A stretch of DNA of 64,000 nucleotides from Psammoneis japonica (taxonomy: Eukaryota), in NCBI GenBank assembly GCA_008632985.1, contig QPGO01000039.1:496001-560000 (forward strand), given 5' to 3'. This document shows positions 2,113 through 31,860 of this stretch, in pieces. The notes under the pieces are model-generated. The model made no database searches. It was not told where the DNA came from and saw only the letters and a program-made list of their open reading frames with translations. Made by a program: the position numbers and the translations under genes. Each line of letters begins with the position of its first letter. The first letter of the stretch is position 1.

Positions 2113-2305
2113 CGACAGTTTGCCCGGGTGTGTTCTTCAGACATTAAAGAACATGCCCAGCACATTTTCATTCTCACAAATGTTGAAAATAGAAAGCCTT
2201 TGGCTTCGCAAAACAGGGAGCATGAAACAATTTCGTAGAATGTCACACGCAGAAATGTGCATGTGCGACATGCGACGTGATCCAAAAAACTGTTGATGTC
2301 ACAGT

Positions 2306-2935: not shown

Positions 2936-3435
2936 TCTCGTTCTGGTTCGCTGATGAACACGTTCAATGTGAATTGTGAGCTGATTGATGCACCGATGCA
3001 CACGAAATGCGAACCCCCGCAGGCCTGGGGGGAAGTCTGCTTTGGAGACCCTGCTTGCCAAATAATGTACTGTCCGTCTGTGCGTTTGGGGTCTTCCCAG
3101 TACAATTTATTTGTAGGGCGCACAGAAAACACGTACGGTAAGGTACTGTACGATCTGTCAAGACGAAACCCTAAACGCACTGATTGACAGACTTCGTCAG
3201 TACAAATTCTACGTAAGTTTCTTCGACGATTTCACTGCCAAAGCACGTCCCCATCCCAGGCCGCATCAGGGGTCATTCGCCCATGAGCTGATGCCGTCGC
3301 TCGCCCCACACTCTTTTCTTTCCTATAAAATACTCAACAACGACTCTTTACACTCCCTGAATCACACTTTAGTTTGTCCATATATTGCATGAAACACATA
3401 CAAGTTTGTTGATTCGCTATTATTTTTTTTTCAAA

Positions 3436-5256
3436 ATGGTTTCTGCTCGAACAAACGGTCTGAAGCAACGACACGACTTGGATGAAAACAAGTATAGCAA
3501 AAAGAAAAAGCTTCGAAGAAAGCAGCGACGAAAAAGCAGCAGTAGTAGTAGTACCCTATCCTACTACAGGGGCGCAATTGTGTTTTGTGTAGTGCTACTG
3601 TGCTGGCTGTATGCACGGAGGCACTGGAGTTGGAAGCAACAACAGCTAAAGCTGGCTCGATTGAAGCGTGCGTATTCGTTGGAGAGAGTTCGACAACAAG
3701 ATACAGATGAAAAGAAGTCTAGAAGCGAAAAACATGAGTCGTTTCATCCACCTCTCCAGGTGGACGAAGAAAAGCCGCAAGCACTTGAGGACGAAAAGCC
3801 GCAGCCCCAGAGCGCGAATTGGAAAGATCAGTACTCCAGAGAGGATCTCGAACACGCTATGAAGGTGCTGAACCACGATATTGTTTCCAATCGCCACGGC
3901 GGCATACGCTTTCTCAATCCCATTTGGTTACCAAGTCTTCCCGGTGGCTTTACCAACCCTGCCATGGAAAGCAAACCACGACCCGACAGAAAGAAAAAAG
4001 GTCGCATGCAGCCCTTCTTCAAGGTTTCTCAGCGAAATACGAAATTTGCATTTGAAAACGAAGAGTGGGACGAAACGGCTGGACCAAAGGTGGATTACAC
4101 GCTAGACAAACATTACGAGTATGCGCCAAGACTTGAGGAACCGCCAGCGGAAGGTGGGTACCCGCATTTGGAACCACTGGAGACAGTCATGACCCGTTGG
4201 CCACAGGACGCTATTGACTCACCACCTGTACCCATCAAGGAGGAGCTACAGAGATTTGATTACAGCAATCCCGAGGAACTTGCCATGGCTATCAAGTTTC
4301 GAGACAAGGAATTGCCATTCAAGCTCTATAATGTTCCAGAACTGCAAGAGGCTGGGCTCAAATGGACCGACGAATACCTTGCCGGGCAATTTGATGATGG
4401 CGCTCGAGGCATTGATAGCTTTGAAAGGGAGGGTTTGGGAATGAATCCTTTCAAAAACCTACTGCGGAGAGGACATGACGAGAACTTGCCACCACCGCCC
4501 AAAGCTTCGGGGCAATGTCAAGAATCCAATGACAATTTCTTTTCCTTCTATATTCCAGCTTCGTGGGATGTCAACACCATGGGATTGCCACCGACACGCA
4601 ACAATGACTTTACCTTTGAGCGGTTTGCGTCTCATGCCCGCTACGCCGACTCGACCAGTCTTAGCTTTGATAAGCCACACTTTTATTGGCAAGCCGGTGT
4701 GCCGCGGGAAGAACGCATGCAACCCAAGTCGGAATGGAGTTTTATATCGAGAGACTTGCCGTCGTGGTCCTCGCCCGAGCCCAACTTTTTCATGTTTGAA
4801 ATTGAAAGCCAAAAGGGTATTCAATGCCGTTTTGGAGAACGCGGTGTGACGGCAGCGACACACTACGACGCGGGACGAAACATGATTGCCATGGTGACGG
4901 GCGCCAAGCGATACGTGTTGAGTCCTCCCAATCAGTGTTCGAAACTGGGAATCATCAATCTACGGGGTCAACCGGCCTTTCGACACTCGCTTTTAAATTT
5001 TGCGCACCTGGAACATGTGAATGATTTGGAGAATGAAATGTCTACAGAAGAGCGACAATGGTTGGAGAAGGCCAAAACCAGTTTGGCGGTGGATACCGTG
5101 TTGAAGGCGGGAGAAGTATTGTACATTCCAAGCCACTGGTTCCATTACATTACAAGTTTACAAAAGAGCGCCCAATGCAACGCACGATCAGGGCGAGAAC
5201 GAGTGGGCACGGCGGAATTTGGAGGCTTTGATGATGTAGACAGGTGTGAAGATTAG
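3436..5256 (+). CDS. JmjC/cupin-like 2OG-Fe(II) oxygenase with N-terminal TM anchor
   Basis: HYD...N motif, VTGAKRYVLSPP, LKAGEVLYIPSHWFH. TM segment AIVFCVVLLCWLY. Confidence 0.88.
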   Translation: MVSARTNGLKQRHDLDENKYSKKKKLRRKQRRKSSSSSSTLSYYRGAIVFCVVLLCWLYARRHWSWKQQQLKLARLKRAYSLERVRQQDTDEKKSRSEKHESFHPPLQVDEEKPQALEDEKPQPQSANWKDQYSREDLEHAMKVLNHDIVSNRHGGIRFLNPIWLPSLPGGFTNPAMESKPRPDRKKKGRMQPFFKVSQRNTKFAFENEEWDETAGPKVDYTLDKHYEYAPRLEEPPAEGGYPHLEPLETVMTRWPQDAIDSPPVPIKEELQRFDYSNPEELAMAIKFRDKELPFKLYNVPELQEAGLKWTDEYLAGQFDDGARGIDSFEREGLGMNPFKNLLRRGHDENLPPPPKASGQCQESNDNFFSFYIPASWDVNTMGLPPTRNNDFTFERFASHARYADSTSLSFDKPHFYWQAGVPREERMQPKSEWSFISRDLPSWSSPEPNFFMFEIESQKGIQCRFGERGVTAATHYDAGRNMIAMVTGAKRYVLSPPNQCSKLGIINLRGQPAFRHSLLNFAHLEHVNDLENEMSTEERQWLEKAKTSLAVDTVLKAGEVLYIPSHWFHYITSLQKSAQCNARSGRERVGTAEFGGFDDVDRCED

Positions 5257-5643
5257 GAAACGGCAATCACAATGTGCCTCCTGAAATTTGTTCACTGCGT
5301 CTACAAAGGCGACTTGAAACTGGAAATAGCCACTACAATCAATGTTCTCAAATAGCGAATAAATCAGCATAACAGAGAAGCACTGAGATGTGTAAGTGGG
5401 TGCGGTTACCTCTTCAGCACTACGAAGCGTTCATCGTTTAGTGTTTGATGATACGTAAGGACACCTTGAATCAGTTATACTACCAAAAGGTACTGAAAGC
5501 GGCCTGCTCTTGGTACCGGTAAATGGCCGCACAAAAAATGTGGCAAAACAGCGCAAAGGAATCCAGCAGCCGCAATACTGCCTTTCAGCTCCATTCGATC
5601 ATACACCAGAAAAAAAAAGTGCAATCTAAACTGTAATCTATTT

Positions 5644-7097
5644 CTATTTTTCGTGATCTACCAAGGACAAATCGTCAACCGGCGCGTTGGTCGATGTGGT
5701 GATTTTCATGTTTTTCACATTGTAATTTTGTTTCTCTTCTCTCTTTGTGCTTTCGTCATTGGATTCAGCATAGATCACGTAGTGCTGCAGCAAAAATATA
5801 ATCTTTGAGAAAATGAGAACCGAGAGTGAGTGGTGTCTGTTTTTTCGAAGGATCAAAAATGATTTCAACTCTAGCAACCGGAGACGGTACTTACATCAAA
5901 CATGATTGTAAGGAAACCCAGCGCAAACTTTGCCATGTTTCCTGTAACACCAGTCCAATCATGCATGTCAATTGCGTCAAAAACAACCTGTAGCATGCAG
6001 AGCGTTCCGCCCACAGCTTCCAAAAAGTTGTACCAAATGTTCCATCCCTTTGTCGATTTTCGTTCCATGTTGAAAAGGACCTGTTTTGAATATTTGGTCA
6101 ACGTGCAGGATATCTTTAGGAAAGACAGCATATAAAAGTAATCCAACCACTTGTGAAAGGGGAGAATACCAGAAAATAGCAGTACTGGACCAACAAGCGT
6201 TGGTGTGACAATGCAAAAGAGTAGTATCCAAGTTTGACGTTTGATCCGTAGTGGCCAACCGTCGTTGCTGCTGTACCATATGATTTGAAAGACATAAATA
6301 AACGACAACGTCATGGCGTGCAGGGCAAAGAGCACGTCATTCGACTGAACTGTGTTGTCACTGGCTTTGAATCGTTCTCGATACAATTGCTTAATTTCGC
6401 CATCAAAATACATGGCACATTCGTACAAGGCAAAGCAGGTCCAACCCAAGAGATTCAACACGGCAAAATCATGACTTAGTCCCAAGGTCGATTTTCGTCT
6501 GTAGTTCAAAATGACTTGGGGATAAAAGCAAACCGACCAACAAAGGAAGTACGTATAACCCAACATGGAACTGGTTGCTCGAAAATCGGGCGTCAAGTGT
6601 TCATCCTTGGGCATGATTAATCCTAACGCGATGCCAACGCTTGACAACGCCAACAATCCGGACGCCAATTTTGTCGGTGATCCCGTGTCATCTGTAAAGG
6701 GAATCATGAGCGAGTTCTTGAAGTTTCCCAAATACTGCGTCGACAGAGTCACAATTGATGATGCCGTAGACCATGATGCAAGAGACGACTGAGAGCGATT
6801 GTCATCGTCCTCGGTGTCGGTTACATCCCAGAGAAAGGAGGAAGAAGAATCTTCTCGAATAGTTCTTGTTGGTTGAACGCTGCTCGGTTCGTCTTGCGTC
6901 TTTGCTAATGCATCTAAACCGGAACTGGACTTATGAGAAATCAGCGGTGTTTTCTCATTGTGATAAGGATCAAAAGCGGAAGAAGTTTTCCGTGAAGTGG
7001 GCGCCAGCGGTGTTCGGTCTACGTAAAGAAAGCCCGACCTCGGCGGTGGTGGTTCCTTGTCATTCTCTTCTAGGTCTTCCCAGTCAGGAGTTGACAT
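5644..7097 (-). CDS. CTNS: Cystinosin-like PQ-loop lysosomal transporter (2 exons; intron 5803-5894)
   Basis: WSVCFYPQVILNYRRKSTLGLSHDF, NDVLFALHA, RKSTKGWNI, then FD|IIFLLQHYVIY after a GTAAGT..AG intron. Confidence 0.88.
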
Positions 7098-9970: not shown

Positions 9971-10657
9971 TTCTTTCTTTTCGCCCGGCTTCTCAGCACT
10001 ACGCCTGACAGAATCGTGACTTTCTTGGGAATACAAATAATATGACAAGACCTGCTTCTTGCCAGAGTGTATCAAAGACGTTGTGAGAGTCCTCTCTTCT
10101 GAAACAGGCCGGAAACGTCGGGATACGTAATGAAATCACACTCGTAAACTTCGATTTACTTCGCCGCCATAGCGCTTTTCTCACCTCGCGACCACACGCA
10201 GAGGCAAGCACTCGATTTATGAGAGGCGGTGCAAGGTGCAAGCACAACTTTTTCATCATTTGAACATCAAAGTCTACGCAGGTTATAAAAGTATTCTATG
10301 TCTTCAAGTTCGAATAAGTGGTTTCCGAGGGCACGTGCTGGTGTGCTTCAGCTGGTACAGAAGACGTACTGCTGTACGGCACTGCATTTTGTTCCATTTC
10401 GTCTGATATTCAGCGAACGGCATTTCCCTGTCACTAATAGAGACACTATCAGTGATACTATCTGATGAATGAAATTAAGGATGAATATGTAAATTAAAGA
10501 AATGTCATCTTCTAAACATTTAGAGGAAATCTCAAATACTTCGTGAGAAAAAGAACCAAAAACCGACCAATTTTGAAAAAGTCTAATTTCGTAGCGAGAA
10601 ACTCAAATCGGTCATTATTCACCGAAAACCGAAACAAAGCACACAGTATCAGCGACC

Positions 10658-11596
10658 ATGATGGCAGGGCCAATGGAAGCGTCTTACTTAGTAGTCCCCG
10701 GTCAAGTAATCGCCACAGCTTCTCTGGAACAACAAGAAGAGGATGGGGGCTTTCTACGAGGTCATGGAACTTACATTGAAAAAGTTTTGCAGAACGATGG
10801 AGAGCCGCAACAACGACTGGTTGCAAGTGTCGCTGGGACGGTGGAGCGAGTCAACAAGCTAATCAGTGTTATTCCTGTTGCATCGTCTCTCTATGAAGGC
10901 CATGTGGGAGACTTGGTGGTTGGAAGAATTGTGTCGGTTGGAAACAACCGATGGAAAGTCGGTTTGGGGTCAAGTTTTCGAAACGCTCAGCTCCTACTTT
11001 CGGGTGTGCATCTTCCCGGAGGTGTTCAGCGAGTAAGAACGGCCGAGGATGCCCGTGATATGCGCCAGTTTTTTGCTGAAGGTGACTTGGTTAGTGCTGA
11101 AGTGCACAATGTTCATCAGGATGGTGCTCTGGTCCTGCACACCAGGTCCATGAGGTACGGAAAACTCGAGAATGGATGCCTAGTTCAAGTTCCCCCGGCA
11201 CTTGTACCTCGACAGAAAAATCATTACACGACGTTATTGGGAATGGATGTATTGTGGGGAACCAACGGGTATATTTGGATTCAGCGATCGCTTTCTTCTT
11301 TCCAAGGCGACGCTGTAAGCGATAGTGCCAACGCAGACGTTGCTCCATCGCAGTTGGCTGAAACACAGGAGGTTCTGCGAAAGCGTCATGCGGAAACTTC
11401 AGTGCTGCCGGATGAACGAAAAAATATTTCTCGCTTACGCAACTCGATTGAATGCTTGGTACTTGTCCATTCAATGATTACTCCAGAATCTACTGAGACT
11501 GTTTATCAAGAGAGTCTAACCAGAGGAATGGAAGTAAAGGATATGCTGCAACCTTCTGCGGTGATACAGTTGACTGAATCTTTTCGAAACAAATGA
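10658..11596 (+). CDS. RRP4: Exosome complex component RRP4 (EXOSC2)
   Basis: FLRGHGTY, ASVAGTVERVNKLISV, YEGHVGDLVVGRI, EGDLVSAEV, LHTRSMRYGKLENG, GTNGYIWI. Confidence 0.95.
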   Translation: MMAGPMEASYLVVPGQVIATASLEQQEEDGGFLRGHGTYIEKVLQNDGEPQQRLVASVAGTVERVNKLISVIPVASSLYEGHVGDLVVGRIVSVGNNRWKVGLGSSFRNAQLLLSGVHLPGGVQRVRTAEDARDMRQFFAEGDLVSAEVHNVHQDGALVLHTRSMRYGKLENGCLVQVPPALVPRQKNHYTTLLGMDVLWGTNGYIWIQRSLSSFQGDAVSDSANADVAPSQLAETQEVLRKRHAETSVLPDERKNISRLRNSIECLVLVHSMITPESTETVYQESLTRGMEVKDMLQPSAVIQLTESFRNK

Positions 11597-14540: not shown

Positions 14541-15228
14541 CACGTGCGGTTGGTCTGTCGCATCTATCCTTTGCAACGGAACACCACAAAGATAATGCAG
14601 GGAGGGTTCCTCGGCCAATTACTACTTTTCGCCGATGCGTGTTACTTGCTTGTGAATAGTGATTCTTTGAATGGCTGTAACCTGACTATGGAGGTGCCTG
14701 AGAAGGGCGTTATTCGCACAACATGTTGTGTGTTGTACAAAGTTCTGTTACTTACATACCGCATAAGAGTTACGGAATACTGTAGCAGTAAGAAGTAAGA
14801 TACAAAATGAGTAAGTTTAGGGCTATCTCTTGTGTGTCTTGCAGCTTAGGTATCATTGGCTACGAATACATTTTCAATTTGCATTTTCAATTCACCAAGC
14901 CCATACATCCCGGGTCCGAATAGAAGTAACAACATCAATGCCATTGACGATTGACGTGGCACGTGGCATGTCGCGCCAAAATTCGCAATGGTCTCGTTTT
15001 GATGACGATCGACGGAGGGACAGCCACTGCGCGGCGTGCGTGATCGCGCGGTCCCATTTTTGATTTTTTTTTATTTTTCTTGCGTTTGCTCTTGTGGGTT
15101 ATGTGGGTTGTAGGTTGTGGGCACTCCCCGCTTGGGAGGTCTCCTCGAGTTGTCCTAGTGTTTGGTATTGTCGCTGCACATATCCTTTTCCTGACGTTTC
15201 GTTACTCTCTTCATTGTTGATTTCTATA

Positions 15229-16065
15229 ATGACAAGCTCAGATGATGTCGCGATAGATTTTAGAAAACTAATCAAACAAGAAAGGAAGCGAGCAAAGGAA
15301 AGAAGGAAAGGGCAAGAAGCTACGAAATGCAATCAGCGACCGCAGAAAGAACCATCTCATGATGAACTTCCATGGAACGACGACTGGAACAAGTGCTTGA
15401 CAGAGGCCTTAGTATTGGATCCAGTGACTCACTGTGTTTCTCGAGAAAATCCACGAAGTATTTACTACGTTCCAACGTTTCTGGATCAAGTTTTCATCGA
15501 TAGACTGATTCCCTGGCTACAGTCTCTACCTAGTGGTCGTAATGAAAGCGACTGCAACGGAAAGTGGACTACAATGAAGTATGGAAAACGCCGTGTAGCG
15601 CTCTTTGATGCAACCAACAGCACAGGCCGACCCTTGCCGTCTCCTCTTGAGGCCTTGACCGAGACTCTTGTTGTGTGTGGGGCTTGCACGCTGAAACCCA
15701 ATCATGTCCTCGTGAACGAATACACGGAAACCCAAGGCATCATGCCACATACCGATGGTCCTCTCTATCATGATGTTACAGCTACCATATCCATTGGAGG
15801 AGGAGACGTGCTGCTCAAATTCACTCCTCGACCATTAGATACGGTCCAAAACCAAGCTGAGAATTTGGAGGTTTGGCTTCAAGGATCCGGGTCACTCGTG
15901 GTGTTTCAAGAGGATGCTTACACCAACTATTGTCATGGAATTGACGATGGAATATATACAGAGTATGCTAGCGATTCCTGTGTCAATGCAGTACCGAACA
16001 CAAAGGTCACTCGAGGATATCGCATCAGTCTCACGTTTCGGCACAAGAACGAGTCTTCATCGTAG
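15229..16065 (+). CDS. ALKBH6: AlkB homolog 6-like 2OG-Fe(II) dioxygenase
   Basis: NHVLVNEY...QGIMPHTDGPLY..TATISIG, SLVVF...Y.HGI, RISLTFR. Confidence 0.88.
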   Translation: MTSSDDVAIDFRKLIKQERKRAKERRKGQEATKCNQRPQKEPSHDELPWNDDWNKCLTEALVLDPVTHCVSRENPRSIYYVPTFLDQVFIDRLIPWLQSLPSGRNESDCNGKWTTMKYGKRRVALFDATNSTGRPLPSPLEALTETLVVCGACTLKPNHVLVNEYTETQGIMPHTDGPLYHDVTATISIGGGDVLLKFTPRPLDTVQNQAENLEVWLQGSGSLVVFQEDAYTNYCHGIDDGIYTEYASDSCVNAVPNTKVTRGYRISLTFRHKNESSS

Positions 16066-17727: not shown

Positions 17728-18698
17728 GCTCAGTCGGCTTTCAGGGTGAATAAGTTATTTACAGATCACTTCTTATGGGCAGAAACAGCAGAAGGTGATG
17801 AGACTCAGACAGCGCTTTCGCAATGTGGTTTAGCTTCAACAACGCTGTGGCTCTGGCGTCTTGCGTTCGTATTTCTTTACGTCGTGCTTTTTGTACGAGA
17901 ATTCTGAATCGTGTCACGCACTCTTTTCCAACGCAAAATTTTTACGTGATCTCACCGTACAAGTACGGGCGGAGCGACTGTCTGACGGAGGTCCGTCAGG
18001 TTGGTTCTCTACTCACATGAATGAGGTGTCAGCTGCATTTTCCATGCAGGTTTTGCTTGACTTTAATCAACACAAACCTGCATTACAGTGCAGGTCAGCA
18101 AGCTAAAGACCGAGTTGTTTGGGGTCATGTGGTGCTGTCAGCCAGGAAGCCCTTTCGCAGCACGTGCGGTGGTTGTTTTTCTCACCCCTCGTGCACTGGC
18201 TCCCACCACCAACGCAGCAGTTGTTGGAGCCCAACAACATCCCCACTCACATTTGCTCCATGCCTCATCCATTGTGTGTGGTGGGCTGCTACATGGTCTC
18301 CAGGAAAGCTCACTCCACCAGCTTGGCACACAGGATTTTTTGAGAGTGCAACAAAGTTGGCTCTGATGAGATTGCGCACTTTTTGCAGGAATCTGCTCTC
18401 TCGGCATCATGATGGCACGGGTCTGTCTCACACATGTGTGGCCAGCCATGCACTTTGTTTCTGGCAGATGAAACATTCAAGGCACAAATGCTGCAAACAA
18501 GGAAGACTCTCCCCTGCGGCAGCAAGCAAAAAGAGAAAACAAAGAGTGGCTGTCTTTCTGTCACACATTGTGTGTTTCCCATCTCAGACCATGAAGCACC
18601 AGCTGTTCCAAGCAATCAAGAGTTCCATCAGAATTTTTTTGTGAGAGGACATTTGTGCTGAGGGGGGGGGGTGAGATGGTGGCTGAAGCAGGCCACAT

Positions 18699-19116
18699 TG
18701 TTGATGTCTCAGCTTGCCTGTGCACTGTGCTCAAAGATTGAGTGCAAAGAAAAGCAGAACAAATCATGAAAAAGAGGAAATTGTGAGATCAGATTTTGCT
18801 CTGCAATTTTGGGTTTCTCTGAATGAGCTCTCAATGGCCCAAAGCATTTGTGCTGCTGCTCTTGCAGAGCAAAAGCCTTTCGGAGAATCTGTTCCTTGTG
18901 ACGACAGATTGTCCAAATGCAATCAATGTTGACAGCCTGTGTGTCAACATTGTTTGTCAATTGCACCGGTGATTTTAGACATCCAATCAATTCTGTGCAA
19001 TTTGTCTGACCTTTGTGTGCATCCACGATTGTTGCACAATTGACGCACACACAATGATGCAAGATTGTGAATGTGCACAATTTCTTCTGCTGCTCAACAA
19101 CAACGCGCATGCTGCA
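18699..19116 (-). repeat. 3' LTR of the Gypsy element
   Basis: Starts TGCAGCATG directly after the polypurine tract and ends TCAACA on the minus strand. Homologous to 22715-23046. Confidence 0.7.
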
Positions 19117-22100
19117 CTCACCTGTCCCCAACTGCACATTGGAGTCATTTGTTGAATGGAGTTGTTCAATGGACATTGACAGTGTCAACAATGTTGCCAC
19201 ATTTGATCTGCACTGTGCTGTCATTGTGTGCCATTGTTGTCTTTGGGCTGTTCTAATTTTTGAGAATCTTTCTCTGGCAGGATCTTTTCTCCCACTCTGC
19301 ACATGCATGGAGCACATCAAGCATTCTCTCTGGTGTTGTTTTCATTTGTGACATCTTGTTTTCATTTCTGAACAAACTTCCCCAGTCAGTTGTGTGTTGG
19401 ACATCAAAGACTGATTGTCCTGATGCAGCTGGCACAGTGGTGTGACATGTTGAGCACATTGCAAAGGCCGCTGCTGACAGTGTTCCCTCAAATGGATTTT
19501 GTGCATCCAGGGGTGCATTTTGCAAATCAAATGTGCACAGCATGTTGCCCAGTGCTTGATGCACATGCTCAATTGCGGCATTTGCTTGTGGATTTTGTGT
19601 GGTTGTGGGCTTGCATTCAGTGCCACAATCATCTTGAACTGCAGCTCTAAAATGGCACCCAACAAATTCACTTCCCCACAATCACAAGCAGTCAATGATG
19701 GCCAAGGACATCTGCTCAAAGCAACATTCTTTCCAACAGCCCAGCAACAGTCATGGATTCCTTGTTTGGATTTTCTGCTGCTTCAAACCACCCTGTTGCT
19801 GGACCTGTCATTGTCAAACATTTTTCAGGACTGGGGGTTTCTCTCTGCCCTTTCAATGCATTTTGTGTGGTCAAATGAGATCCCCACACACAGTCTTTCC
19901 CATGGCACTGATTCCATGCATCCAGGAGGCAAGTGTCCACATTTCTTTTGTCTCTTCTTAAATTTCTAGCATGCCTCATGCATTTTCTCATGTCTTCATG
20001 TGAGACAGACCACCACAAGGAGTGTTGCAAGATTGTCTCTTCAGCTCTGTTTGTGCCAGGATGCAGAAGGTGTGCATGATGCCAATCTGTCACTGTTTTT
20101 TGTGATGTCTTTGCCATGATGATTTTGTCCTTGTGATGTGTGAGCATTCAATCTTGCTCACCTCCATGAAAAGTCTTCATGTGGTGGCTGGTGTGTTGTG
20201 CCAGACAATTTGGAGAGAGTGTCTTTGCCCCATTTTTGTTCAGCATCAAGAACTTTGTGCATTGATGGAAAGACATTGTTGCTGGATTTGGGTGCAACAT
20301 TGTCAGCCAGTTCTTCATTGCTGAGGTTTTCCCTGGGATCAATTTTCTTCATGGTGAGTTGGCTGTGATCACATCTCTGCAAAATGACACTGGCCTTGCC
20401 CTTGAGATGGATCATTGCGGGGCTGAAATCTTCAATTGTCAGACACCCTCCTTTTCCATTGCAGTGTGTCAAGTCTGCACTCCACTCAGCTCAAAGCTGT
20501 TGCAAAAGGCAATGGGGGTTTGCTGTTTTGCTTCATGACTGCACCCAATTGAGAATCACTTGCATTGGCGCACATCTCAAAGGGTGTGTTGAAATTTGGG
20601 CATGACAACAACACACATCTTTTGACACAATTTGACTCACATTTTGAAGGCATTTTGTCCCATGCTTGTCCATTGCCACTTGACCTTAGATGAGGTGAGT
20701 TTGGCCAAAGGAGCAACATGTGTTTGAGATTGTCAAGGCCACATGTCTTGACAGCAATCAACCACACCAATGAAACATCACAATTCCTTGCAAGTTGCAG
20801 GAGCTGCAATTGCTTGAATTGCCTCCACTTTCTCAGGTGTTGGTCTGACATGCCATTTTGGGCAACATGAAAGCCTGGACAGTCTGCTTCAGACTTGGCA
20901 AAGAGAATGACTTTTTGGCACTCACCTTCAAACAAGCTTGTTCAAGCTGTGTGAACATTGTCTTGAGCTTGCTCAGATGATTTTTGAAGTTGCCTTCAGT
21001 CAGACATGGCATGTTGTCAATGTGATGTCATGCGGCAAGCTCCAATTCTGCCACAAGCTCACTTGTGTGCTCCTGAAAAACATCTCTGGAGCTCCACAAT
21101 CTCCCATTCATTGGGAAACTTCAGCACTCATGCTTGCCCTGTGGCATCGTGGTCATGCACAAATGATGTGTGTGTGGTGTCAATTCAATGTGGCAGTGTT
21201 CCATGTTCAAATCAAGTGAGGTTGCATGCATGAAACCTTCTGATGGTTTCTGCAGAACATCCTGAATTTTTGGCAAAGGATGAGTGCGGGGCATGCATTG
21301 GCCTTCCACTGAGCTCATGGAAGTCAGGCAGAAACTGAGCTTGACAAATTTTTCTTGGGCTGAACAAAGGTTGGAGCTGCCCATTCAGAGTGGCTTGCTC
21401 TTCTCAGGACTCCTGACTCACACAGTTGGTCCACTTTGTTTCTGGCAGTTGCCCATCAGGCTTGTTGTGGTGCTGGAAAAGGTTTGCATGATGCAGAGTC
21501 ATGCCTGATTTCAGTGCAAAATCAGCCGGCTTCTCCATCAAAAAGGAGTTCAAATCTTTTGAGGAGGAAAAGTTCAGCTGCTTCTGTTCCTCTGGGGTTG
21601 GATGCTGTGTCACTGTGGCAGCCACATTGTTGAGATCAGCAGCATGGCAGTTGGCACTGAGGATTTTGTTGATCACATCATCAAGGCCATTCACAGCATT
21701 GGATTCTTCAATGTGGCCAGCAATCAGCTGGAACACTTTGGTGTCAAAGAGTGCATCAACGTTCTTTGTTGGCACAGCTGCATTTTCCCATTTGATTTCT
21801 TCACTCGCAAAATCAAGTGTGTGACTCCAAGGCTGCTTGTCAAGTTGTGTCCCATGGTCATGTCATGTCTTGAAGAAGCAGCAGTGTCATCAACACATGT
21901 GCCATCTTCTCAACCAAGCAATGCTTGTCAAATTCAGGCAGCAAGAATTGAGCTGAGCATTGGCTGTCAGTTGCAAAGAAGCCACTGCCCTTGGTTTCCC
22001 AAGTCTTGGTGGCAGATTTCTCATTTCTCAATTTCTGTGTGAATTTGTGCAAAATTGTGGTTGACAATGTTTTTCTGTCAAGAAGAATGTGCAGAGGCTT

Positions 22101-22714
22101 GTTGTTTTCTCATTTCCCAAGGAAGTGTTCATGTGAGCAATGACTGCTCTGCTTTGGCCCTTTTCCCAGGCTTCCCAACATCCAGTGATGCACAGTCATT
22201 CCTTGGAGTTGCTGCACAAGTCATTTTTCAAACTGACAGTTTTCTACACTGAGGGTGTCTGAGCCACATTCCTCACTCTTGCACTTCTGATTGTTTGTGG
22301 AGGAACTCATCTTGAAAGATTTGTTGACTGCCTGAGTGATCATGGCATTCAACTCTTCTTTTTGAGAGGATTTTTAGCATCACGATGAGACCAGCCATGT
22401 GTGGTTGTTGCTGTTTTGGGTTTTGTTCACCACTCTCTTGGCATTCTTTTGCCAGCCTCTTGATGACCCAGCAGCACTGACCCATGTTGCACCACTTGCC
22501 AGGCTCAGATTGTTTGGCACCAGCTTGGCAACCATTTTGGGACCACAGCAAGATCCATCCTTGGCTTTGGAGCCAGACTTGTTGGCAGCATCAGACTTGG
22601 CATGCATGAGTTTGATCAAACAATGTGTCCTCAGCAACCTCCAGGTCTTCCAAGAATTCTGCCAACTCATCAAAGGTGTGGTCCAAAATTTTGAAACCTT
22701 GTGGGGTTGGCTGA

Positions 22715-23046
22715 CACAGTGCACCATGCTTGAAGAAGGAGTGCAAACAAAAGTGGAACAAAGTGCGAAAAGTGGAAATTGTGAGATTAAATTTCAATCT
22801 GTGATTTTTGGTTTCTCCGAATGAGCTCTCAATGGCCTGAAGCTTCTGCACTGCTTCTGCAGACAAAAGGCCTTTCGGAGCACATGCGATTGATGTTGAC
22901 ATGCAAGATGTCAACATTGTCAATCAACCTCACTTGCAATTTTTGATGTCTGATCAACTCTGTGTGATCATTCTGTCCTGCTGTGGCATGATTGACATGT
23001 GAAAAATGTGCAATCACAGATGTGCGCACAACAGTCGCATGCTGCA
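22715..23046 (-). repeat. 5' LTR remnant of the Gypsy element, fused to mid-gag
   Basis: Shares cgcatgctgca, gaatgagctctcaatggcc, gcctttcggag and ggaaattgtgagat with the 3' LTR. Confidence 0.65.
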
Positions 23047-23229
23047 AAGCTCTTGGAGTTGTCATTGTGTGATGGCAGCACATGTGTGGAGGATGGACAG
23101 ACTGTCAATGACAAGAGGGACAAACCAGAAATGGCGCCCCATGTTGAAAAATTCTTCCTGCTTTCAGCCATTTGTCACAAACAGCTCTCTCACAACTGAC
23201 ACATTGGCTCCTTTTCCCCTGAGGCATGG

Positions 23230-23480
23230 CAGCATTGAGAGCTCATTAAATTGGCTCTGACAAGATTGAAGGGTGCAGCACAGGGTTGCGCCACTCTCAG
23301 TGTGATGGGTGTGGGTCTGTCTTGCACATGCATGACCAGCCACACAACACTTTGTTTTTGAGAGATGAGATGCCTCAGGTGCACACAAACAATGCTGCAA
23401 ACCTGTTGAAGAATGCGAGGAAGATTGTGGCAAAGGGAAAACAGACAGCAGTTGTCTCTTTTTGCTGTTTTGTGTTTCTA
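23230..23480 (+). repeat. Diverged repeat, paired with ~18340-18600; unidentified coding remnant
   Basis: Shared ttggctctga, gggtctgtct, cactttgttt and aatgctgcaaac in the same order. Confidence 0.55.
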
Positions 23481-24543
23481 ACATCTGCAGAAAATGGAGC
23501 ACCAGATGCTCCAACATGCAGCTGAGAGAGAGCTCCACATCAGGAAATTTGCAACATTTGTGCCAGCCAAGGGAGGAGAGGGGTGGTGGCGGCACAACTG
23601 AGGCAGACCACATTGCCAACAGCTCAGCTTGGTGCTTGTTTGTCTCTGAAGCACTGCCAAAAATTCAAAAGTGGTGCTTGTGCACAAGCACCGCCAATCA
23701 TGAGCCTCCCTTCAATCAACTCAACAATGACTCCAAGTCCTCCAGTGGCAGCAACTGGCTGCAGCTTCTCCCTCCTTCTTTGAACAATCAAACAAGCAAT
23801 CAAAATGTTGCAGGTCACAAGAGCATCTGATGAAACTGTCACAACAGAGCTGATCATGTGGCAATTCATCGCATTTTGATGATCATGCTGTTCAACTCCC
23901 CCCATCCTCTGATCTGTTTTTTGTTTTGGGCGAATGCTTTGTGCCACCACAACTCTGGAACTCATCACAGTGTGGCGCATGTTGCCCCGCCGTGCCCTTC
24001 AGCAACATCATCAGCATTGACGTTGACCAGCAACAATTTGTCAAAACATCACGCTCACACTCATCGCTTCTGGCAAACGACATCGTCAAAAGCAACGGCA
24101 AATCACCATTTTTTTTTGTCACGGTGCAGCGTGGAAAAAATTGGTTTTTGTGGTGGCCTGCACCAGAGACAAATGACATCTACACATCAACACATGTGGC
24201 ACAAAGTCAATGTTTCTGCGCACGACACTTTGTTGCTCAGATTCCTTTTTCGGGTTCGAACTTTCAATTTTAACCAACTTGGGTTTTAAATTTGGATTTT
24301 GAACCCAAAAGGGTCCAAAATTGCAATTTTTGACCCGCCCCGAAAACGCGGAGGCAGAACAGCCAGTTCGCATTTCGCATTGAGCCGCAATTTGCATTTT
24401 ACGCTGTTACAAGGTGTGCATCGTCTTCTCAGATGATGCTCTGAGCCTGCAAGCTAAAGACCAGATGGCATGGACCAGCCTGCTGTTGTGTGGTGATTGA
24501 GGTTTTGTGCCACCCCAAATTCAAAAAAACTCAAATGGGCATG

Positions 24544-25800
24544 CCAAACCCACCAAACTTGCCAAACTCGCCAAACCTGCCAAACTCCCCAAGCTGGCCA
24601 AACTTGCCAAACTCACCAAACACGCCAAACTTGCCAAACACGCCAAACTTGCCAAACTCACCAAACTTGCCAAACTTGCCAAACCTGCCAAACTTGCCAA
24701 ACTCAGGAAACTTTCCAAACTTGTCAAACTTGGCAAACTCACCAAACTTGCCAAACTCGCCAAACTTGCCAAACCCACCAAACTTGTCAAACTTGCCAAA
24801 TTTGCCAAACTCGCCAAACCTGCCAAACTTGCCCAACTTGCCAAACTCGCCAAACTTGCCAAACCTGCCAAACTCACCAAACTTGACAAACTTGACAAAC
24901 CTGCCAAACTTGACAAACTCGCCAAACAATCCAAACTTGCCAAACCCGCCAAACTTGCCAAGCTCACCAAATTTTCCAAACCCGCCAAACTTGCCAAACT
25001 CAGGAAACTTTCCAAACTTGTTGCACTTGGCAAGCTTGCCAAACTTGTCAAACTTGTCAAACTTGGCAAACTTGCCAAACCTGCCAAACTTGCCAAACTT
25101 GCCAAGCTCGCCAAACCTGCCAAACTCCCCAAACTCACCAAACTTGCCAAGCCCGCCAAACTCACCAAACTTGCAAACCCTGCCAAACTTGTCAAACTTG
25201 CCAAACTTGGCAAACTGGCCAAAGACGAAGCCCGCCAAACTTGGCAAACTCACCAAACTTGGCAAAACCTGCAAAACCCGCCAAACTTGCTAAACTCAGC
25301 AAACTTGCCAAACTTGTCAAACTTGCAAAACTCACCAAACTTGTCAAACTTGCAAAACTCGCCAAACTTGCCAAACTTGCCAAACCTGCCAAACCTGCCA
25401 AACTCACCAAACTTGCCAAATGCGCCAAACTTGCCAAACCAGCCAAACTCACCAAACTTGCCAAACTCACCAAACCTGCCAAACCTGCCAAACTTGCCAA
25501 ACCCGCCAAATTGGCCTTGCCAAACTTGCCAAACTCACCAAACCCACCAAACCCGCCAAACACACCAAACTTGCCAAACACACCAAACTTGCCAAACTCA
25601 CCAAACTTGCCAAACCCGCCAAACTTGCCAAACTCAGCAAACTTGCCAAACTTGCCAATCTTGCCAAACTCACCAAACCCGCCAAACTTGCTAAACTTGC
25701 CAAACCCGCCAAACTTGCCAAACTTGCCAAGTGCACCAGACTCGCCAAACTCGCCAAACTTGCCAAACTTGTCAAACTCGCCAAACTCACCAAGTGCACT
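24544..25800 (+). repeat. 9-bp minisatellite (CCAAACTTG)n, ~140 units
   Basis: Directly visible tandem array. Unit variants end in TTG, TCG, TCA, CTG, CCG or CCA. Confidence 0.97.
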
Positions 25801-26695
25801 TGCAAAAAACACTCACGTGAATGGCCTTTTGCACATGTCCAGAGTGTGAACACTCAAACATTTTTTTTCATTGGTGCTCAAACCTCCATGCACCATGTGC
25901 CACAATTTCTTCCTGTGAAGTCAGCACCAATTGCTGGTTGTGTGATGAAATCTTGGCTGCAGCCGGCCTTTGTGGGCAGAAAACACCTGCCAGAAAACAC
26001 TGCAAACAAACATTTTGTGTTGTCACACAAACAGCACTGACAGCACATGAATCTTGATGATTTTTGTTAAAAATCAGCACCCATTGTGTTGCGGCTTGTC
26101 ACTTGCTTCTGACCCGATGAAAAATGCCGACAGCAGAGAAACAATGGCGATGTGACGCTGATGCGAGTCTTGTCAGTTTTGCAAAACATCAACATTTGGG
26201 ACATCCCCAGCTCAGTCACAAGTCAGAGACTGAGCCAAAATTGTGCAAATGTCATTTTTTGCATGTGTTTGGATCGCATCATGCGGCTGGAGCACATCGC
26301 CTTTCCAGCAGCGTGCCAGGGCTTGAGGACTTGCGTGCTCAAAACAGTGTGTGCCCTTGTTGCAGAGCACCTCTGAAATGATCTTGTGGTCTGTGTCTTC
26401 TTGTTGCGCTGCTTTTTCTTTCATTTTTGTCAGTCACTAACTTGTTTTCTCCCCCTTCTGGCCTTCAGCAGCAGTGCCAGCGACACTTCTGTCCCCCACG
26501 CACAGTGGCTGCAGATCCACCTGCTTGTGCCAGCCACGCGATGGCATGACGCGGCAGGCGCCAGACAGCCGGTTCGCATTTTTTCTCATCGCTCATCGCA
26601 CCGCAATTCGCATTTCACGCCATTGCGAATCTTGCATCGCAGTCGTCTCCTCTGGATACCGAAGAGAAAGAGAAAGTAAATCATCATTCATAACC

Positions 26696-29350
26696 ATGAG
26701 CCGACGAGCGGCGAGACATAGTGGAATGCCAGATGAAGATGATTGGAATCCTCCGCAATCGCTACTACACCACACGAGCAGCAAAGAAATGAGGACAACA
26801 GGAGCCAATAAGGACAACAACAGCAAACCCGGATACGACGACAATGATGCGAGTTCTTCTCTTCCTCCTCAGCGTCCCCATTATGCGAGTGGACAATGGA
26901 GAAGAGTGTCAGAAGTACCAGATGCTCCTAGTACCGGTGCTTTTCATCATCATCAGAAACAGCAGCATCAGTTTTGGAGTGAGAGAGGATACGAGAAGAG
27001 AGGAAAAGACAAGATTGACACGACTCATGCTCCTGAATTGTTTCCAATAGAGCGTCCACCTCCTCCAATGATGGCGAGGAATGAAAAGGGAGAAACGTTG
27101 GGGTCACTTAAATCCAACAAGAAAGACGTTCAGAAGCAGAATCCCCAGAAAAGTGGCGCCGGATTGCATCCTCACACGGATAACAAATTCAATACAGCAT
27201 CCGCCGCAGCAAGCACTAGTAGACCTCAGGATGAAGATATTGATGACATTCCTACAGAAGGAGTCGCTCCTCAGTTGATTGATAACAAGAAATGCGTACA
27301 GAAGCGGAATGCCCGGAAAAAAGGCGCCGGGTTGCATCCTCACACGGATAACAAATTCAATACATCATCCACCGCAGCCAGTATTAGTACACCTCAGGAT
27401 GAAGATATTGCTGCCATTTCTACAGAAGGAGTCAGTCCTCAGTTTAATGACCATGAAGATTTTGCTTCATCCAATAGAATGCAGGCTGCGGAAGGAAGCG
27501 ACCCTTCTGCGGTGCAGCAGCAAGTGTTTCCTGGGGCCTACCGGGAGGGTGGCAACTCGTCATTTCAACAAGATGAAGAATATACACTGTCTGCTCCATC
27601 GATTCAAGACATGCCACCACCACAACAAGACGAACAAGCGCCGCATGGTGATTCCCCGCCCTTACTAACCGCTCATGTGGTGAATGAGGCTGAAGCTATT
27701 GTGGTCGATTCTCAACCCATAACGGATGGCGGCAGCAGCAGCAATAGTCCCGGTGGGTGGTGGTCGTCACCACGAAACAGAATATTCTTTTTGGTCGGCA
27801 GCATTGCACTTATTGCTGTTGGTGCTGTTGTGGGTGTGGTGATGGCGCTTTCCGGCGGCAGTGATACGGCGAGTCAGGCGGCGATAACCTCTGAGCCGTC
27901 AATTGCTCCTACGCCTGAACCTACTCGTGAATCTGGACCAAAGACGGACTCTCCCACACCTCCTTCTACGCTATCCCCAACACCCGTATCGCCGACGGAC
28001 CCCTCTACAGATCCTCCAACATGGCCTCCATCTGGCTCCCCAACAGATCATCCAAGTGTTTCTCCGACAGACTCCCCAACACCTTCCCCTAGTTTGTCGC
28101 CGACAGTCTCCCCAACATCTTCTCCTACTCTTCCTCCTAAGGTGTGGAAACAGGTTGGTTCCGATATCGAAGGTCCAAACACAAATGACTTTTTGGGAAA
28201 TGCCATTGCGCTGTCGGAGGATGGCGAGCGCCTTGCCGTGGGAGCGATGTGGCACGATTTCAACGACACCATGTTACGAACCGGCATTGTTCAATTGTAT
28301 GATTTAAGAACCCTTGTGGGTCAAGACGAGGTGGAACCCTATTGGCAGCAACGTGGTCCCGACATTTATGGTGAAGCGCAAAATGCACACGCGGGTGCGT
28401 CCGTGGCGCTGGTTGGCACCACGGTGGCGGTGGGAGCGTCTGGTCACGAATATGATGGACAGGAGGATATTGGAATGTCCCGTGCATATGGCATCAGTGA
28501 TCCAGATGATGATTATGCTGCACCGTATGGATGGGAAGTATACGGATGGAATGCCTCGGATGAGCTCGGACGCTCCATTGCTCTATCCAGTGATACAAAC
28601 ATCATGGCTGTCGGTGCCCCGGGCACTTGGGACCGCCCTGGATATGCCGCGATCTACGGTTTTAACGATAGGGCATACCAGTGGGTTAGGTTGGGAGACA
28701 GAATTGAGGGTTTAAACAACGATGATTCCTTTGGATCAAGTCTATCTCTATCTCAAGATGGCTATCGAGTGGCAATTGGGGGCAGGTTTCACGATGTCGG
28801 AGATAAATACCGGGCCGGGCACGTTCAAGTGTATCAGTATGACAGAAGCGCTGAGACTTGGCTCCAACTAGGTGATGACATTGTCGGAAGAGAGACGCAT
28901 ACTTTATTTGGCGAAGATGTTTCACTAAATGCCGTTGGCAATCGCGTTGCCATTGGTGGGAGTGGAGATGGAGGTTACATCGGCGTCTACCAGTATGATC
29001 AAACATCGCAAAAATGGGAGACTCTCGGGGATGTTATCGAATCTGCAACAGGGACTGACTCGTTTGGTAGCTCAGTGTCGATGTCTGCTGCCGGTGATAT
29101 TGTCGCCGGAGGTGCCACTTCTAGTGACGACGGGGGTCCGAGGTCCGGTCACGTACGTGTCTTTGAATTCATTGCCGACAAAGGTTCGTGGGAGCAGGTA
29201 GGGCCCTCCATTTTTGGCAGCGAGAACGATAATTTCGGTGCGTCCGTGTCCTTATCGTCAAATGGCCAGCGTATAGCAGTGGGTGCACCATATTTTGACG
29301 GAGCGAACGGCCAGCGCTGCGGTCACGTACAAGTCTTTGACCTGGTATAG
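26696..29350 (+). CDS. Single-pass membrane protein with P/S/T stalk and FG-GAP (integrin-alpha-like) beta-propeller
   Basis: PGAY motif, TM IFFLVGSIALIAVGAVVGVVMAL, PT/SP repeats, and repeated FGxSVSLSxxGxRxAVGA units. Confidence 0.9.
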   Translation: MSRRAARHSGMPDEDDWNPPQSLLHHTSSKEMRTTGANKDNNSKPGYDDNDASSSLPPQRPHYASGQWRRVSEVPDAPSTGAFHHHQKQQHQFWSERGYEKRGKDKIDTTHAPELFPIERPPPPMMARNEKGETLGSLKSNKKDVQKQNPQKSGAGLHPHTDNKFNTASAAASTSRPQDEDIDDIPTEGVAPQLIDNKKCVQKRNARKKGAGLHPHTDNKFNTSSTAASISTPQDEDIAAISTEGVSPQFNDHEDFASSNRMQAAEGSDPSAVQQQVFPGAYREGGNSSFQQDEEYTLSAPSIQDMPPPQQDEQAPHGDSPPLLTAHVVNEAEAIVVDSQPITDGGSSSNSPGGWWSSPRNRIFFLVGSIALIAVGAVVGVVMALSGGSDTASQAAITSEPSIAPTPEPTRESGPKTDSPTPPSTLSPTPVSPTDPSTDPPTWPPSGSPTDHPSVSPTDSPTPSPSLSPTVSPTSSPTLPPKVWKQVGSDIEGPNTNDFLGNAIALSEDGERLAVGAMWHDFNDTMLRTGIVQLYDLRTLVGQDEVEPYWQQRGPDIYGEAQNAHAGASVALVGTTVAVGASGHEYDGQEDIGMSRAYGISDPDDDYAAPYGWEVYGWNASDELGRSIALSSDTNIMAVGAPGTWDRPGYAAIYGFNDRAYQWVRLGDRIEGLNNDDSFGSSLSLSQDGYRVAIGGRFHDVGDKYRAGHVQVYQYDRSAETWLQLGDDIVGRETHTLFGEDVSLNAVGNRVAIGGSGDGGYIGVYQYDQTSQKWETLGDVIESATGTDSFGSSVSMSAAGDIVAGGATSSDDGGPRSGHVRVFEFIADKGSWEQVGPSIFGSENDNFGASVSLSSNGQRIAVGAPYFDGANGQRCGHVQVFDLV

Positions 29351-29649: not shown

Positions 29650-31860
29650 TCTTTCATCGCCATCCCGCAGGAAACACCTGGCTTGCATGATGCATTTCAG
29701 GCGACCAATGCTCCGTTGCAATCCCACGGCTCCTTTGAGCATCTTCCAGCGTTGCACTCTCTGGTCCCGATGGATCCGTTGTCACAACTGAGACGAGGAA
29801 GACACATTTGCCACAACACACTCACCACGCAAGCGTCTGGCACCACGTGTTTGTGCACCAGATCTTCAATGATGCATGGCACAAAAAACATGACATCAGC
29901 AGGGATGACCATTGCAGTGGAAAATCGAGCACTCTGCTGGCTGGTTGTTGCACAAGCCACAAGACACCGCACCTTCTTAAGCCAGCACAGAGCTTGCAGG
30001 TTCAGGGCAACCCAGGCATGTGCTGAAGCAAAAACTCACTCTCCAGTTTCAATGTGATGGCATTGATGATGAAAAAGACTGAGCGTGGCTGCAGCTCTTC
30101 AGATGGCCCATGGCTTTGCAAACTGGCCAGTGCAGCCAAGCAAGCAATGCCAGTGTGTGGCCTCAGAAACAGGCCCAGGAGGAGTGTGCCTGCTCATGAC
30201 CATGTGAGCAAGCCCCCTCCCCCCAGCAGCAGCAACAGAAAGAAGAAAAAGGACAGGTGGCAGGTGGTGGGAGAGATTTTTCAATGGCTGCTGTGACAGC
30301 CAAGCTGATGATCTCAGCATGGCAGCTGACCAGGAACTGCACTGTCCAAACACTGTGGCTGCCTTCAGGGACTGTGACAGTGCCAGAGCACATCTTTTTT
30401 CCAACAACAAGTGTGCCACACACAACCTGCACTGTGACTGCAAAAGATTTGATGATGGAAGCTGGGGGAACACCTGCATGCATGAGGTGTTTCTGGTCCT
30501 GCCCTTTTCCACAGCTTTTGGCTCATTTGGGCTGAGATCAGACCTGCGCTGATTTGCCCATTTTGTGCCAGACCCAAAGGACCCCAACCACAAAGCCCTG
30601 GTTGCAAAGTGTTGCGCACCCATTTTTGCCTGTGAGAAGACAAGTGTGTGCCATGATGAGATGGCCTTGCCTTGGGGCCAACTCCAGCTTCATGGCTCAT
30701 GTCCACACAGTGATGTGTGCGATGAGAGTTTGCATTTCTTGCACCACCGCTGTGTCCCATGACCCCAACACTTGTGCCCTCTCAACAATGCTTGCTCATT
30801 GGAGTGACCACAGCAGTGGCCATGCCACTCCATCACATGGCTTTGACAAAGCAAGTGAATCTGCCTGGACTTGCCATGTGGACCCACAAAGAGAGACAAA
30901 CAACAACAACAACAACAACAACAAAGCCTGCTGGCCATTTGTCCTGCACAAGAGACTGTGAGCCTGCTGCTGGGGCACTCTTCCAATGTGCTGAAAGAAG
31001 AAGCTGCCAACTTGCAATGCTGCAGAAAGAGCCAACTTGCCATGGAGATTTTGTGTGAGGCCAAAGAGTGAAAATTGGCCCTGAACAAAAGGTTCCAAGT
31101 TGGGTGGCACAGACAAGCTGGCAGCCAAGAAAAGAAGTTGTCGCTGCCGCTCTTCCTGAGCAGTGGCAAGAGCAAAACAACAGAAGGTGCAGCAGGAGGG
31201 GTGCAGGACATGCTCAGTTTCAGGGCAGCTTTTTGAAAGAGGCCAAAGCAGAGAAGAGAACATTTGTGAAAGATGAGCAGCTGTGTGGCGCACAGAAAAA
31301 ACCTGGTGCCGCTGTTTTTGGCAGTGAACAATGAAGTCAGTGAGTGGACCAAGCACATCCAGTGCATTTGTGCATGATGATGATCTGCTCTTGGGGAAAC
31401 AGGAACACCAGCACACGGCGAAGCCAAGCAGCCAGCCGTGCTCTGCCACATTCACAGCAGTGCGAATCTGTGGTGGGAGACATCAACGGGCAACAACACA
31501 GTGCCAAGATCAAGAATCGCAAGCAACTGGAGGGGAACATGTGTGAAGATGTCATCACCAGTGGCTTTTTTGCTTGAACAGAGATGCAAGACTGACCAGC
31601 AGCCCAGCAGCTCTTCTGACAACAAAAGAAGATGGGGAGATCGTCAACAGCGCCGAGAGAGACTTTTTGTGACACACCTGGTGTTGTTGTCATTGCACAG
31701 GTCTAAGGCCAACAGGAGGACCCTGTCATGGCATTCATCAACTTTGATTCAGCAGTGGATCAAGGAGCGACCTGTGTGAGACATGATCACCATGCGACAA
31801 ACAGCAGCATGACCCCTTTGTGTTCAAAATGTGGGCGGTTGTGCTTCCATTGGCGCAGAA
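29650..31860 (+). mobile_element. TpA-depleted island 3, possibly a decayed piggyBac-like transposase
   Basis: Almost no TA over ~2.1 kb (survivors ttaa, ctaa). CDES-like motif at ~30715 and VWRTEKTW at ~31285 weakly resemble piggyBac motifs. (CAA)n at ~30900. Confidence 0.4.

Follow-up and report, generated by a model that had tools for sequence, protein, structure and literature searches.

Hypermutation directed at the dinucleotide TpA has so far been known from a single 2026 preprint on one alga, the chlorarachniophyte Bigelowiella natans (bioRxiv 10.64898/2026.01.13.699255, Mettrop et al.). The main text of that preprint describes a localized hypermutation that turns TpA into TpG/CpA in integrated DNA of giant viruses and virophages, reports de novo TpA to TpG/CpA changes in mutation-accumulation lines, counts 124 clusters depleted of TpA and puts forward a deaminase of the ADAT2 type as the cause. 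Here, we analyzed a stretch of 64,000 nucleotides from contig QPGO01000039.1 of Psammoneis japonica (referred to as the window), which is eukaryotic DNA with a GC content of ~47%, many genes and few introns. Islands of the window have lost nearly all of their TpA (TA) sites, and the residual sites follow a rule set by their flanking bases.

Similar to the changes described in B. natans, those found in the window are transitions of A:T to G:C that occur at TpA only, yield TpG or CpA on either strand and leave kilobase-sized clusters depleted of TpA and enriched in CpA and TpG (TA rho of 0–0.28 with TG+CA rho of 1.5–2.1 in the window). According to the same main text, the victims in B. natans are enriched in reverse transcriptase (RT) and transposase domains and many of them are unannotatable; in the window, one island holds a decayed RT-RNase H remnant and others are likewise unannotatable. 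The two cases also differ: the lineage is a chlorarachniophyte there and diatom-like here, and the window islands are near saturation, with 5–6% of TA left, whereas the nucleocytoplasmic large DNA virus (NCLDV) region of B. natans keeps about half. The process in the window is of the B. natans kind, in a new lineage and with an added flank rule. The words "context", "flanking", "trinucleotide" and "CpG" are absent from the main text of the preprint; thus, the flank rule, the effect of T-runs and the co-loss of CpG reported below are not described in that main text. A literature search, with few subscription journals within its coverage, returned no report of TpA hypermutation besides this preprint and none in diatoms.

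Other systems are comparable as well. RIP, the repeat-induced point mutation of ascomycete fungi, is also a dinucleotide-specific transition hypermutation that acts in place on integrated selfish DNA, with spillover and sharp-edged composition islands. Different from the process in the window, which destroys TpA and makes no stop codons, RIP makes TpA from CpA and creates stop codons. The islands show no TpA excess and a TA to TG/CA direction, so RIP fails by its defining test. RIP also mutates both copies of a duplication, whereas of the two paralogues in the window only that at 62087-63912 is mutated and that at 47697-49564 has a normal TA content. In addition, a multi-copy-looking segment at 46.7–47.6 kb was not hit, and duplication itself is not shown as the trigger. 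The APOBEC3/AID and ADAR enzymes resemble the window process as deaminase-type defences that leave clustered transitions at a short preferred motif. However, APOBEC acts on C and ADAR on RNA, in most cases on a single strand and prior to or in the course of integration. The window process changes TpA at its A:T pairs, does so on both strands and follows integration.

The reading of the whole that we consider probable is that a TpA-specific mutator converted nearly every TA of the islands to TG or CA in situ and that the survivors obey the flank rule.

TpA-depleted islands and the direction of change

TA was almost wholly lost from five blocks of the window (1-3060, 18121-26650, 29650-31700, 51051-62000, and 62001-64000), which are 2–11 kb long and contain 0–7 TA per 500 bp versus 25–40 expected. 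Their TG+CA content is 1.5–2.1 times the expectation, and their borders are sharp, extending over ≤250 bp. The islands within these blocks are as follows.

1-3060, island I0: TA-depleted, 27 TA left; CG rho 0.4–1.1; sharp end at ~3000
18121-24240, island I1: TA and CG both nearly absent; TA rho 0–0.28, CG rho 0.07–0.36, TG+CA rho 1.7–2.0
24241-26650, TA-poor flank of I1: CG only partly lowered; 9 TA left, 7 of them in the context YTAR (Y, pyrimidine; R, purine)
24543-25793, satellite in the I1 flank: 9-bp unit GCCAAACTC, ~140 copies
29650-31700, island I2: free of TA and CG; 1 TA left (TTAA)
51051-62000, island I3: 11 kb long, without TA and CG and with repeats inside; 33 TA left, 21 of them YTAR
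62001-64000, plus strand, island I3b: TA-depleted, CG near normal; hypermutated copy of a GLUG-motif gene

The regions 18121-24240, ~30000-31500 and 51051-62000 are called the cores, and 1-3060 and 62001-64000 the TA-only domains. The left border of I1 is sharp and lies at ~18000-18250; between 18121 and 24240, 13 TA are left versus ~262 predicted from the density outside the islands. The satellite was omitted from the rate fits, as its repeat unit itself is without TA. It adjoins the retroelement island I1 and has a strong GC and AT skew.

The direction of change was established from a pair of paralogues within the window, which are 73.6% identical over 1961 bp when the window is compared with itself by BLAST.

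47697-49564, plus strand: unmutated paralogue with normal TA content, the ancestral proxy
62087-63912, in I3b: hypermutated paralogue, with an open frame at 62723-64000

The 51 aligned TA sites of the normal copy correspond to 18 CA, 17 TG and 7 TA in the island copy. Changes from TA to TG/CA outnumbered the reverse changes by 35 to 2 (p=1e-8), other dinucleotides were 62–82% conserved and CG changes were symmetric (17 versus 11). The change thus runs from TA to TG/CA and is restricted to TpA. The two strands were equally affected, as 17 sites became TG and 18 became CA. Retention of TA differed by context: 5 of 9 YTAR sites were kept, compared with 1 of 13 RTAR, 1 of 17 YTAY and none of 12 RTAY sites, and the contrast between YTAR and all other contexts (5/9 versus 2/42) was significant (Fisher p=0.001).

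Flank dependence of the residual TpA sites

The 13 residual TA of 18121-24240 are TTAG (three), CTAA (three), TTAA (three), CTAG (one) and CTAC (three), or 10 YTAR, 3 YTAY and no RTAN. YTAR makes up 16.4% of the TA outside the islands (262/1601), 23.7% of the flanks of island TG/CA steps (1397/5892) and 25% by composition; the binomial p for 10/13 is 2.5e-6, 7.7e-5 and 1.3e-4, respectively. The YTAR share of 10 in 13 that the initial annotation had put forward as approximate is thus exact, and it departs from all three nulls. Its extension of the bias beyond this island holds for the remaining islands when pooled, 1-3060 included (45/83, p=4e-15). By island, the counts are 21/33 in 51051-62000, 7/9 in 24241-26650, 8/13 in 62001-64000 and 1/1 in 29650-31700; 1-3060, to which we return below, does not show the bias on its own (8/27). 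Survivors of the type RTAY, which it had described as very rare, were indeed so, with 2 of 56 in the islands of the transposable element (TE) cores versus 30% outside (p=7e-7). Among the four tetramers that it had named as the surviving set, TTAA, CTAA and TTAG belong there; CTAG does not, as it is not specially protected, with 2 left versus ~37 expected in the core. More generally, counts of all NTAN tetramers inside and outside the islands of this window showed that YTAR is not depleted as strongly as the other contexts.

The remark that other survivors often follow a T-run was borne out as well. TTT preceded 18 of 45 surviving TTAB sites (B, C, G or T; 14 of 25 in the core) versus 56 of 567 outside (p=5e-7), and all seven YTAY survivors of I3 were preceded by TTT. 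No such excess of TTT was found in the flanks of island TG/CA steps (265/2186 versus 224/2336). Moreover, the survivors were enriched for A at positions +2 (51% versus 27%) and +3 (40% versus 28%).

Survival in the islands relative to the density outside was graded by both flanking bases as follows.

TTAA: 0.69
CTAA/TTAG: 0.24
CTAG: 0.10
GTAA/TTAC: 0.10
GTAC: 0.065
ATAA/TTAT: 0.06
CTAC/GTAG: 0.04
ATAG/CTAT: 0.02
ATAC/GTAT: 0.006
ATAT: 0

Normalization to the full set of pyrimidine-purine steps that share the flanks, which removes the dependence on flank composition, left the ranking unchanged: core survival was 0.53 for TTAA, 0.24 for CTAA/TTAG, 0.07 for TTAC/GTAA, 0.05 for CTAG and ≤0.02 for the rest. 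TTAA is thus almost immune and CTAG is unprotected.

These values were described by a Poisson model with four parameters, in which the loss rate of each A:T pair of a TA is governed by the base on its outer side. For the core islands, where 47 TA are left of ~818 expected, the fitted cumulative doses by the base 3' of A were 3.75 for T, 2.21 for C, 1.27 for G and 0.33 for A. The order was the same in the TA-only islands (T 1.64, C 1.15, G 0.99, A 0). The deviance fell from 91.9 for a uniform rate to 26.1 for a pyrimidine/purine (Y/R) rule and to 3.2 on 6 degrees of freedom (df) for the four-base additive model, which was better than the Y/R rule at p=1e-5. The duplex site TAY/RTA, which had been named as the preferred one, is therefore a serviceable coarse description that the four-base order T > C > G >> A surpasses. 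YTAR is likewise a good coarse summary of the survivors; the main effect is that a 5' T or a 3' A flank, as well as T/A-runs, protects the site. The enzyme-like specificity that had been read from the bias stands in so far as the mutational process is context-dependent and not a matter of chance or composition, and it needs the graded flank rule and the run protection to be complete.

Contents of the islands and action in place

Recognizable features within the islands are few.

20489-20941, minus strand: decayed RT-RNase H remnant of a long terminal repeat (LTR) retroelement pol (Pfam match to RT_RNaseH_2 that stays under the curated cut-off, E=5.6e-4)
18700-18900, plus strand: direct repeat copy 1, possibly an LTR remnant; 78% identical over 166 bp with copy 2
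22700-22895, plus strand: direct repeat copy 2, the partner of 18700-18900
within 1-3060, minus strand: open frames of I0, one with a TSP_3 repeat (361 aa)
62723-64000, plus strand: GLUG frame of 426 aa, open to the window end

Six of the seven matches to the frame at 20489-20941 in a library of 1.84 billion proteins carry RT_RNaseH_2 or RT_RNaseH above the cut-off, and the alignment shows LSYP changed to LSCP, a Tyr to Cys replacement at a conserved position. The sub-threshold RT_RNaseH_2 match was the only one in a Pfam search of 148 island frames of ≥75 aa. No homologue was found for the longest island frame (53125-54261), sequence searches of the PDB with three I1 frames gave nothing meaningful, and no Rfam family was found in the window. 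I2 and I3 contain no recognizable domains, and the cores are without detectable function. As to a foreign or TE origin, I1 holds the RT-RNase H remnant, the islands bear repeats, I3b is a cellular-looking GLUG gene copy, and I2 and I3 are unannotatable.

The conversion took place on DNA that was already integrated. Between the repeats at 18700-18900 and 22700-22895, eight dinucleotides are discordant, with CA in one copy and TG in the other, and such discordances number 47 across five intra-island repeat pairs. Such discordances would be expected if the copies were already present when each of them resolved an ancestral TA (or CG) in its own way. Taken with the sharp edges and with the changes in a gene copy and in satellite flanks, they point to a DNA-level process on integrated sequence rather than on an RNA intermediate.

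By the genetic code, a change from TA to TG/CA cannot make an in-frame stop codon: TAA is turned into TGA or CAA, and TAG into TGG or CAG. Thus, frames stay open even if the gene is dead, and their openness is uninformative on function. In the long open frames of the TA-only blocks, Tyr makes up 0.5–2% of the encoded residues and Cys 3–7.5%; the corresponding values for the window's normal genes are 3.4% and 1.4%. The frames in the TA-only domains are also enriched for Cys/His.

Loss of CpG as a separate process

CG is also nearly gone from the three cores, where its rho is 0–0.36 compared with ~1 outside, and 191 CG are left versus ~1022 expected. CG is near normal in the TA-only domains 1-3060 and 62001-64000; the losses of TA and of CG are therefore separable. 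Moreover, the survival of CG by flank in the cores (0.60 for GCGC, 0.05 for TCGA) is unlike the flank rule of TA. The CpG depletion of the cores is probably a second, methylation-type decay overlaid on the TA loss. Methylation-driven decay, in which CG is lost to TG/CA, would account for this second depletion, while its flank rule and its extent, which spares the TA-only domains, set it apart from the loss of TA. TEs of diatoms are CpG-methylated by DNMT5a, as reported in PMC9998398, and such methylation of transposons would explain the loss of CG from the cores. The pattern of CG rho agrees with the loss confined to silenced repeats that such decay would produce.

Occurrence in related genomes

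The named relatives closest to the RRP4 gene of the window (10595-11593) come from raphid pennate diatoms (Nitzschia, Fistulifera, Seminavis, Bacillariaceae), with 54–60% identity; another match is 67% identical. Metagenomic loci around RRP4 relatives, 80 in number and 500,328 bp in total, were scanned for similar islands, and windows were flagged at three of them: six at locus L012 and one borderline each at L045 and L064. At L012, whose RRP4 is 56% identical, a stretch of 1,560 bp (199-1759) contains no TA, with TG+CA rho of 1.6–1.96 and CG rho of 0.22–0.62, and lies 2.3 kb upstream of the RRP4 gene. It shares no sequence with the window islands and, having no residual TA, is uninformative on the flank rule. 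At least one further related genome thus shows the phenomenon. That saturated islands occur both in this diatom-like genome and in a metagenomic relative suggests that the defence is not a chlorarachniophyte curiosity.

Proposed process and points against it

If a TpA-specific mutator was at work, the islands would consist of degenerate mobile elements together with their flanks, plus one or more gene duplicates; each copy would have been converted independently and in place on integrated DNA, on both strands about equally. The residual TA would mark contexts in which the mutator works poorly. Read on the A strand as 5'-TA-N, its efficiency would fall in the order N = T > C > G >> A, and read on the T strand as 5'-N-TA, in the order A > G > C >> T. 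Contributions from the two half-sites would be roughly additive, leaving TTAA nearly immune and CTAA/TTAG half-protected, with ATAT and ATAC/GTAT wiped out, and T-runs 5' of the site (A-runs 3' of it) would give extra protection. Genes would be inactivated by missense mutations, such as Tyr to Cys/His, and by loss of stop codons, not by truncation. The targeting probably depends on silent chromatin or on foreign-DNA status. The most likely chemistry, at about even odds, would be an enzymatic deamination of adenine in DNA, with A converted to inosine and read as G.

Several points weigh against the proposed process. Only 8 of the 27 residual TA of island 1-3060 are YTAR (p=0.06 versus 16.4% and 0.3 versus 23.7%), and the residual TA of this island have a strand skew, with 12 RTAR versus 2 YTAY (p=0.005). 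A multiplicative whole-site model, with a deviance of 8.1 versus 3.2 for the additive one, is also acceptable. An effect of the flank on its own base pair is backed unevenly: in the paralogue pair, products next to a T/A flank had the expected direction in 10 cases versus 3 (p=0.09), core k-mer gains followed the prediction in two of three classes, and the product-direction bias was not seen in the TA-only islands. The TTTTAB survivors suggest that T-runs protect both base pairs, which fits DNA shape equally well as an enzyme pocket. Moreover, gene-rich DNA outside the islands had to stand in for the TA contexts that the decayed elements had ancestrally, and a direct ancestor is available from the 51 sites of the paralogue pair only. 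Finally, we know of no polynucleotide adenine deaminase with a preference for T at +1 and a rejection of A.

The strand skew in 1-3060 could reflect weak selection or a strand bias.

Alternative explanations

The best-surviving alternative, which we nevertheless regard as unlikely, is a chemistry of thymine, in which T at TpA is oxidized or modified to a base of the 5-hydroxymethyl- or 5-formyl-uracil type that pairs with G and gives T to C, under the rule 5'-[A>G>C>>T]-T-A. As TA is palindromic, deamination of A is indistinguishable from such T-directed chemistry: each change from TA to TG/CA can equally be read as a T to C change of the opposite strand, and the flank model is symmetric. Hydroxymethyluracil occurs preferentially at TpA in some protists, and formyluracil mispairs with G. 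The near-pure transitions given in the main text on B. natans (210/211), however, fit a clean coding change, such as that to inosine, better than a repaired lesion, and no T-modifying enzyme was noted, although no search aimed at one was made.

Less likely still is a flank bias that stems from DNA shape or chromatin, with TA in T-run or A-run contexts being inaccessible to the mutator. Protection does reach beyond the nearest neighbour, as seen from the A at +2/+3 and the TTT before TTAB, and in survivors of the TTTTAC type the A beside C is kept as well. The graded doses of C, G and T flanks (2.2, 1.3 and 3.75) are not a run effect, however; CTAA/TTAG are protected without runs, and the additive model fits without a run term.

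It is very improbable that the residual TA were regenerated from CA/TG or kept by selection, for instance as signals or Tyr codons. Some selection is possible in 1-3060, where 8 of the 23 residual TA inside three minus-strand open frames are in-frame Tyr codons. The core islands are without detectable function, however, and five of the seven TA kept in the hypermutated paralogue are YTAR sites conserved with the unmutated copy. In addition, a null that samples new TA according to the flanks of TG/CA steps in the islands was rejected for the cores by its class distribution (chi2 74.5, reached in 0 of 200,000 simulations). The rejection of this null and the conservation of the kept sites in the paralogue indicate that the residual TA are survivors, not regenerated sites.

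Hyperediting of retroelement transcripts from A to I by an ADAR-like enzyme before reverse transcription would suit the pol remnant in I1 and the preference of ADARs for U 5' of the edited A, but its probability is negligible, as the strands were hit equally, a cellular gene copy and satellite flanks were also affected, the same sites were resolved differently between intra-island copies, and TAG is relatively protected versus TAT/TAC, opposite to the 3'-G preference of ADAR. Strand-specific editing before integration was accordingly rejected on its own test: both strands, discordant copies and a non-retroelement victim were found.

A sequencing or assembly artefact, with modified bases of silent DNA miscalled as TG/CA, is equally hard to credit: the library type of sequencing run X1 is not on record, but contigs derived from its reads reproduce 52970-62021 with 5–16 other letters per 1–2 kb piece (an agreement that is not fully independent, as X1 is possibly the window's own source), its word depth on the islands (53–66) is like that of neighbouring genes, the unrelated metagenome assembly of L012 has the same kind of island, and the B. 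natans changes were called from Illumina data according to the preprint's main text. Contigs of a second run, X2, span 44001-50670 only and include no island bins, and nothing was drawn from this gap.

Relation to adenine deaminases and significance

Similar to the proposed TpA-specific mutator, TadA, ADAT2-ADAT3 and the adenine base editors convert A to I, which is read as G, and need T/U 5' of the target A. All inferred changes in the window are at TpA, in agreement with a 5' T of the TadA/ADAT2 type. At +1, the natural site of TadA carries C, and the substrates of eukaryotic ADAT mostly carry a purine. The order in the window, T > C > G >> A with A strongly disfavoured, differs from this +1 preference. 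The analogy to TadA rests only on the 5' T; the 3' preference does not match. The initial annotation had drawn this analogy from UACG, the natural substrate of TadA; C turned out to be second-best at +1, not best, and a TadA-like enzyme is neither supported nor excluded. To our knowledge, natural activity of TadA or ADAT on chromosomal double-stranded DNA domains is not established.

We tentatively suggest, with confidence that falls just short of even, that diatom-like stramenopiles, in addition to the rhizarian B. natans, have a domain-targeted DNA editor that erases TpA with a footprint of 4 bp or more, 5'-TA-[T>C>G>>A], to which TTAA is immune and against which T/A-runs are protective. No polynucleotide deaminase that we know of fits this footprint, and the editor would thus be a new kind of natural editor of adenine (or thymine), independent of CpG methylation and maybe widespread in the supergroup of stramenopiles, alveolates and Rhizaria (SAR). 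A quantitative flank rule is a fingerprint of the kind that identified the APOBEC/AID signatures; it predicts which sites persist in any victim sequence and offers an assay read-out for candidate deaminases or T-modifying enzymes. If the proposal is true, the editor silences genes without making stop codons, and its specificity could be used to identify its gene. Moreover, a natural enzyme that changes A:T to G:C on double-stranded chromosomal DNA would be of interest to the builders of base editors.

Other features of the window

The segment at 46670-47600 is rich in TA (43 per 500 bp), and its summed word depth in run X1 is 1,900–6,200 versus ~55 elsewhere. It looks multi-copy and has nevertheless kept its TA, and so speaks against a trigger that depends on copy number by itself; summed depth does not equal copy number, and the observation is a lead only. 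Between the islands lie a gene for an AlkB-like 2-oxoglutarate-Fe(II) oxygenase (15064-16062) and a JmjC/cupin gene (3373-5253), both without a demonstrated link to hypermutation. For one unexplained open reading frame of the host, an Atlas look-up gave scores that were all <0.9. Finally, a tandem duplication of 167 bp with 87% identity is present at 27116-27450, inside a large FG-GAP repeat gene (26441-29347).

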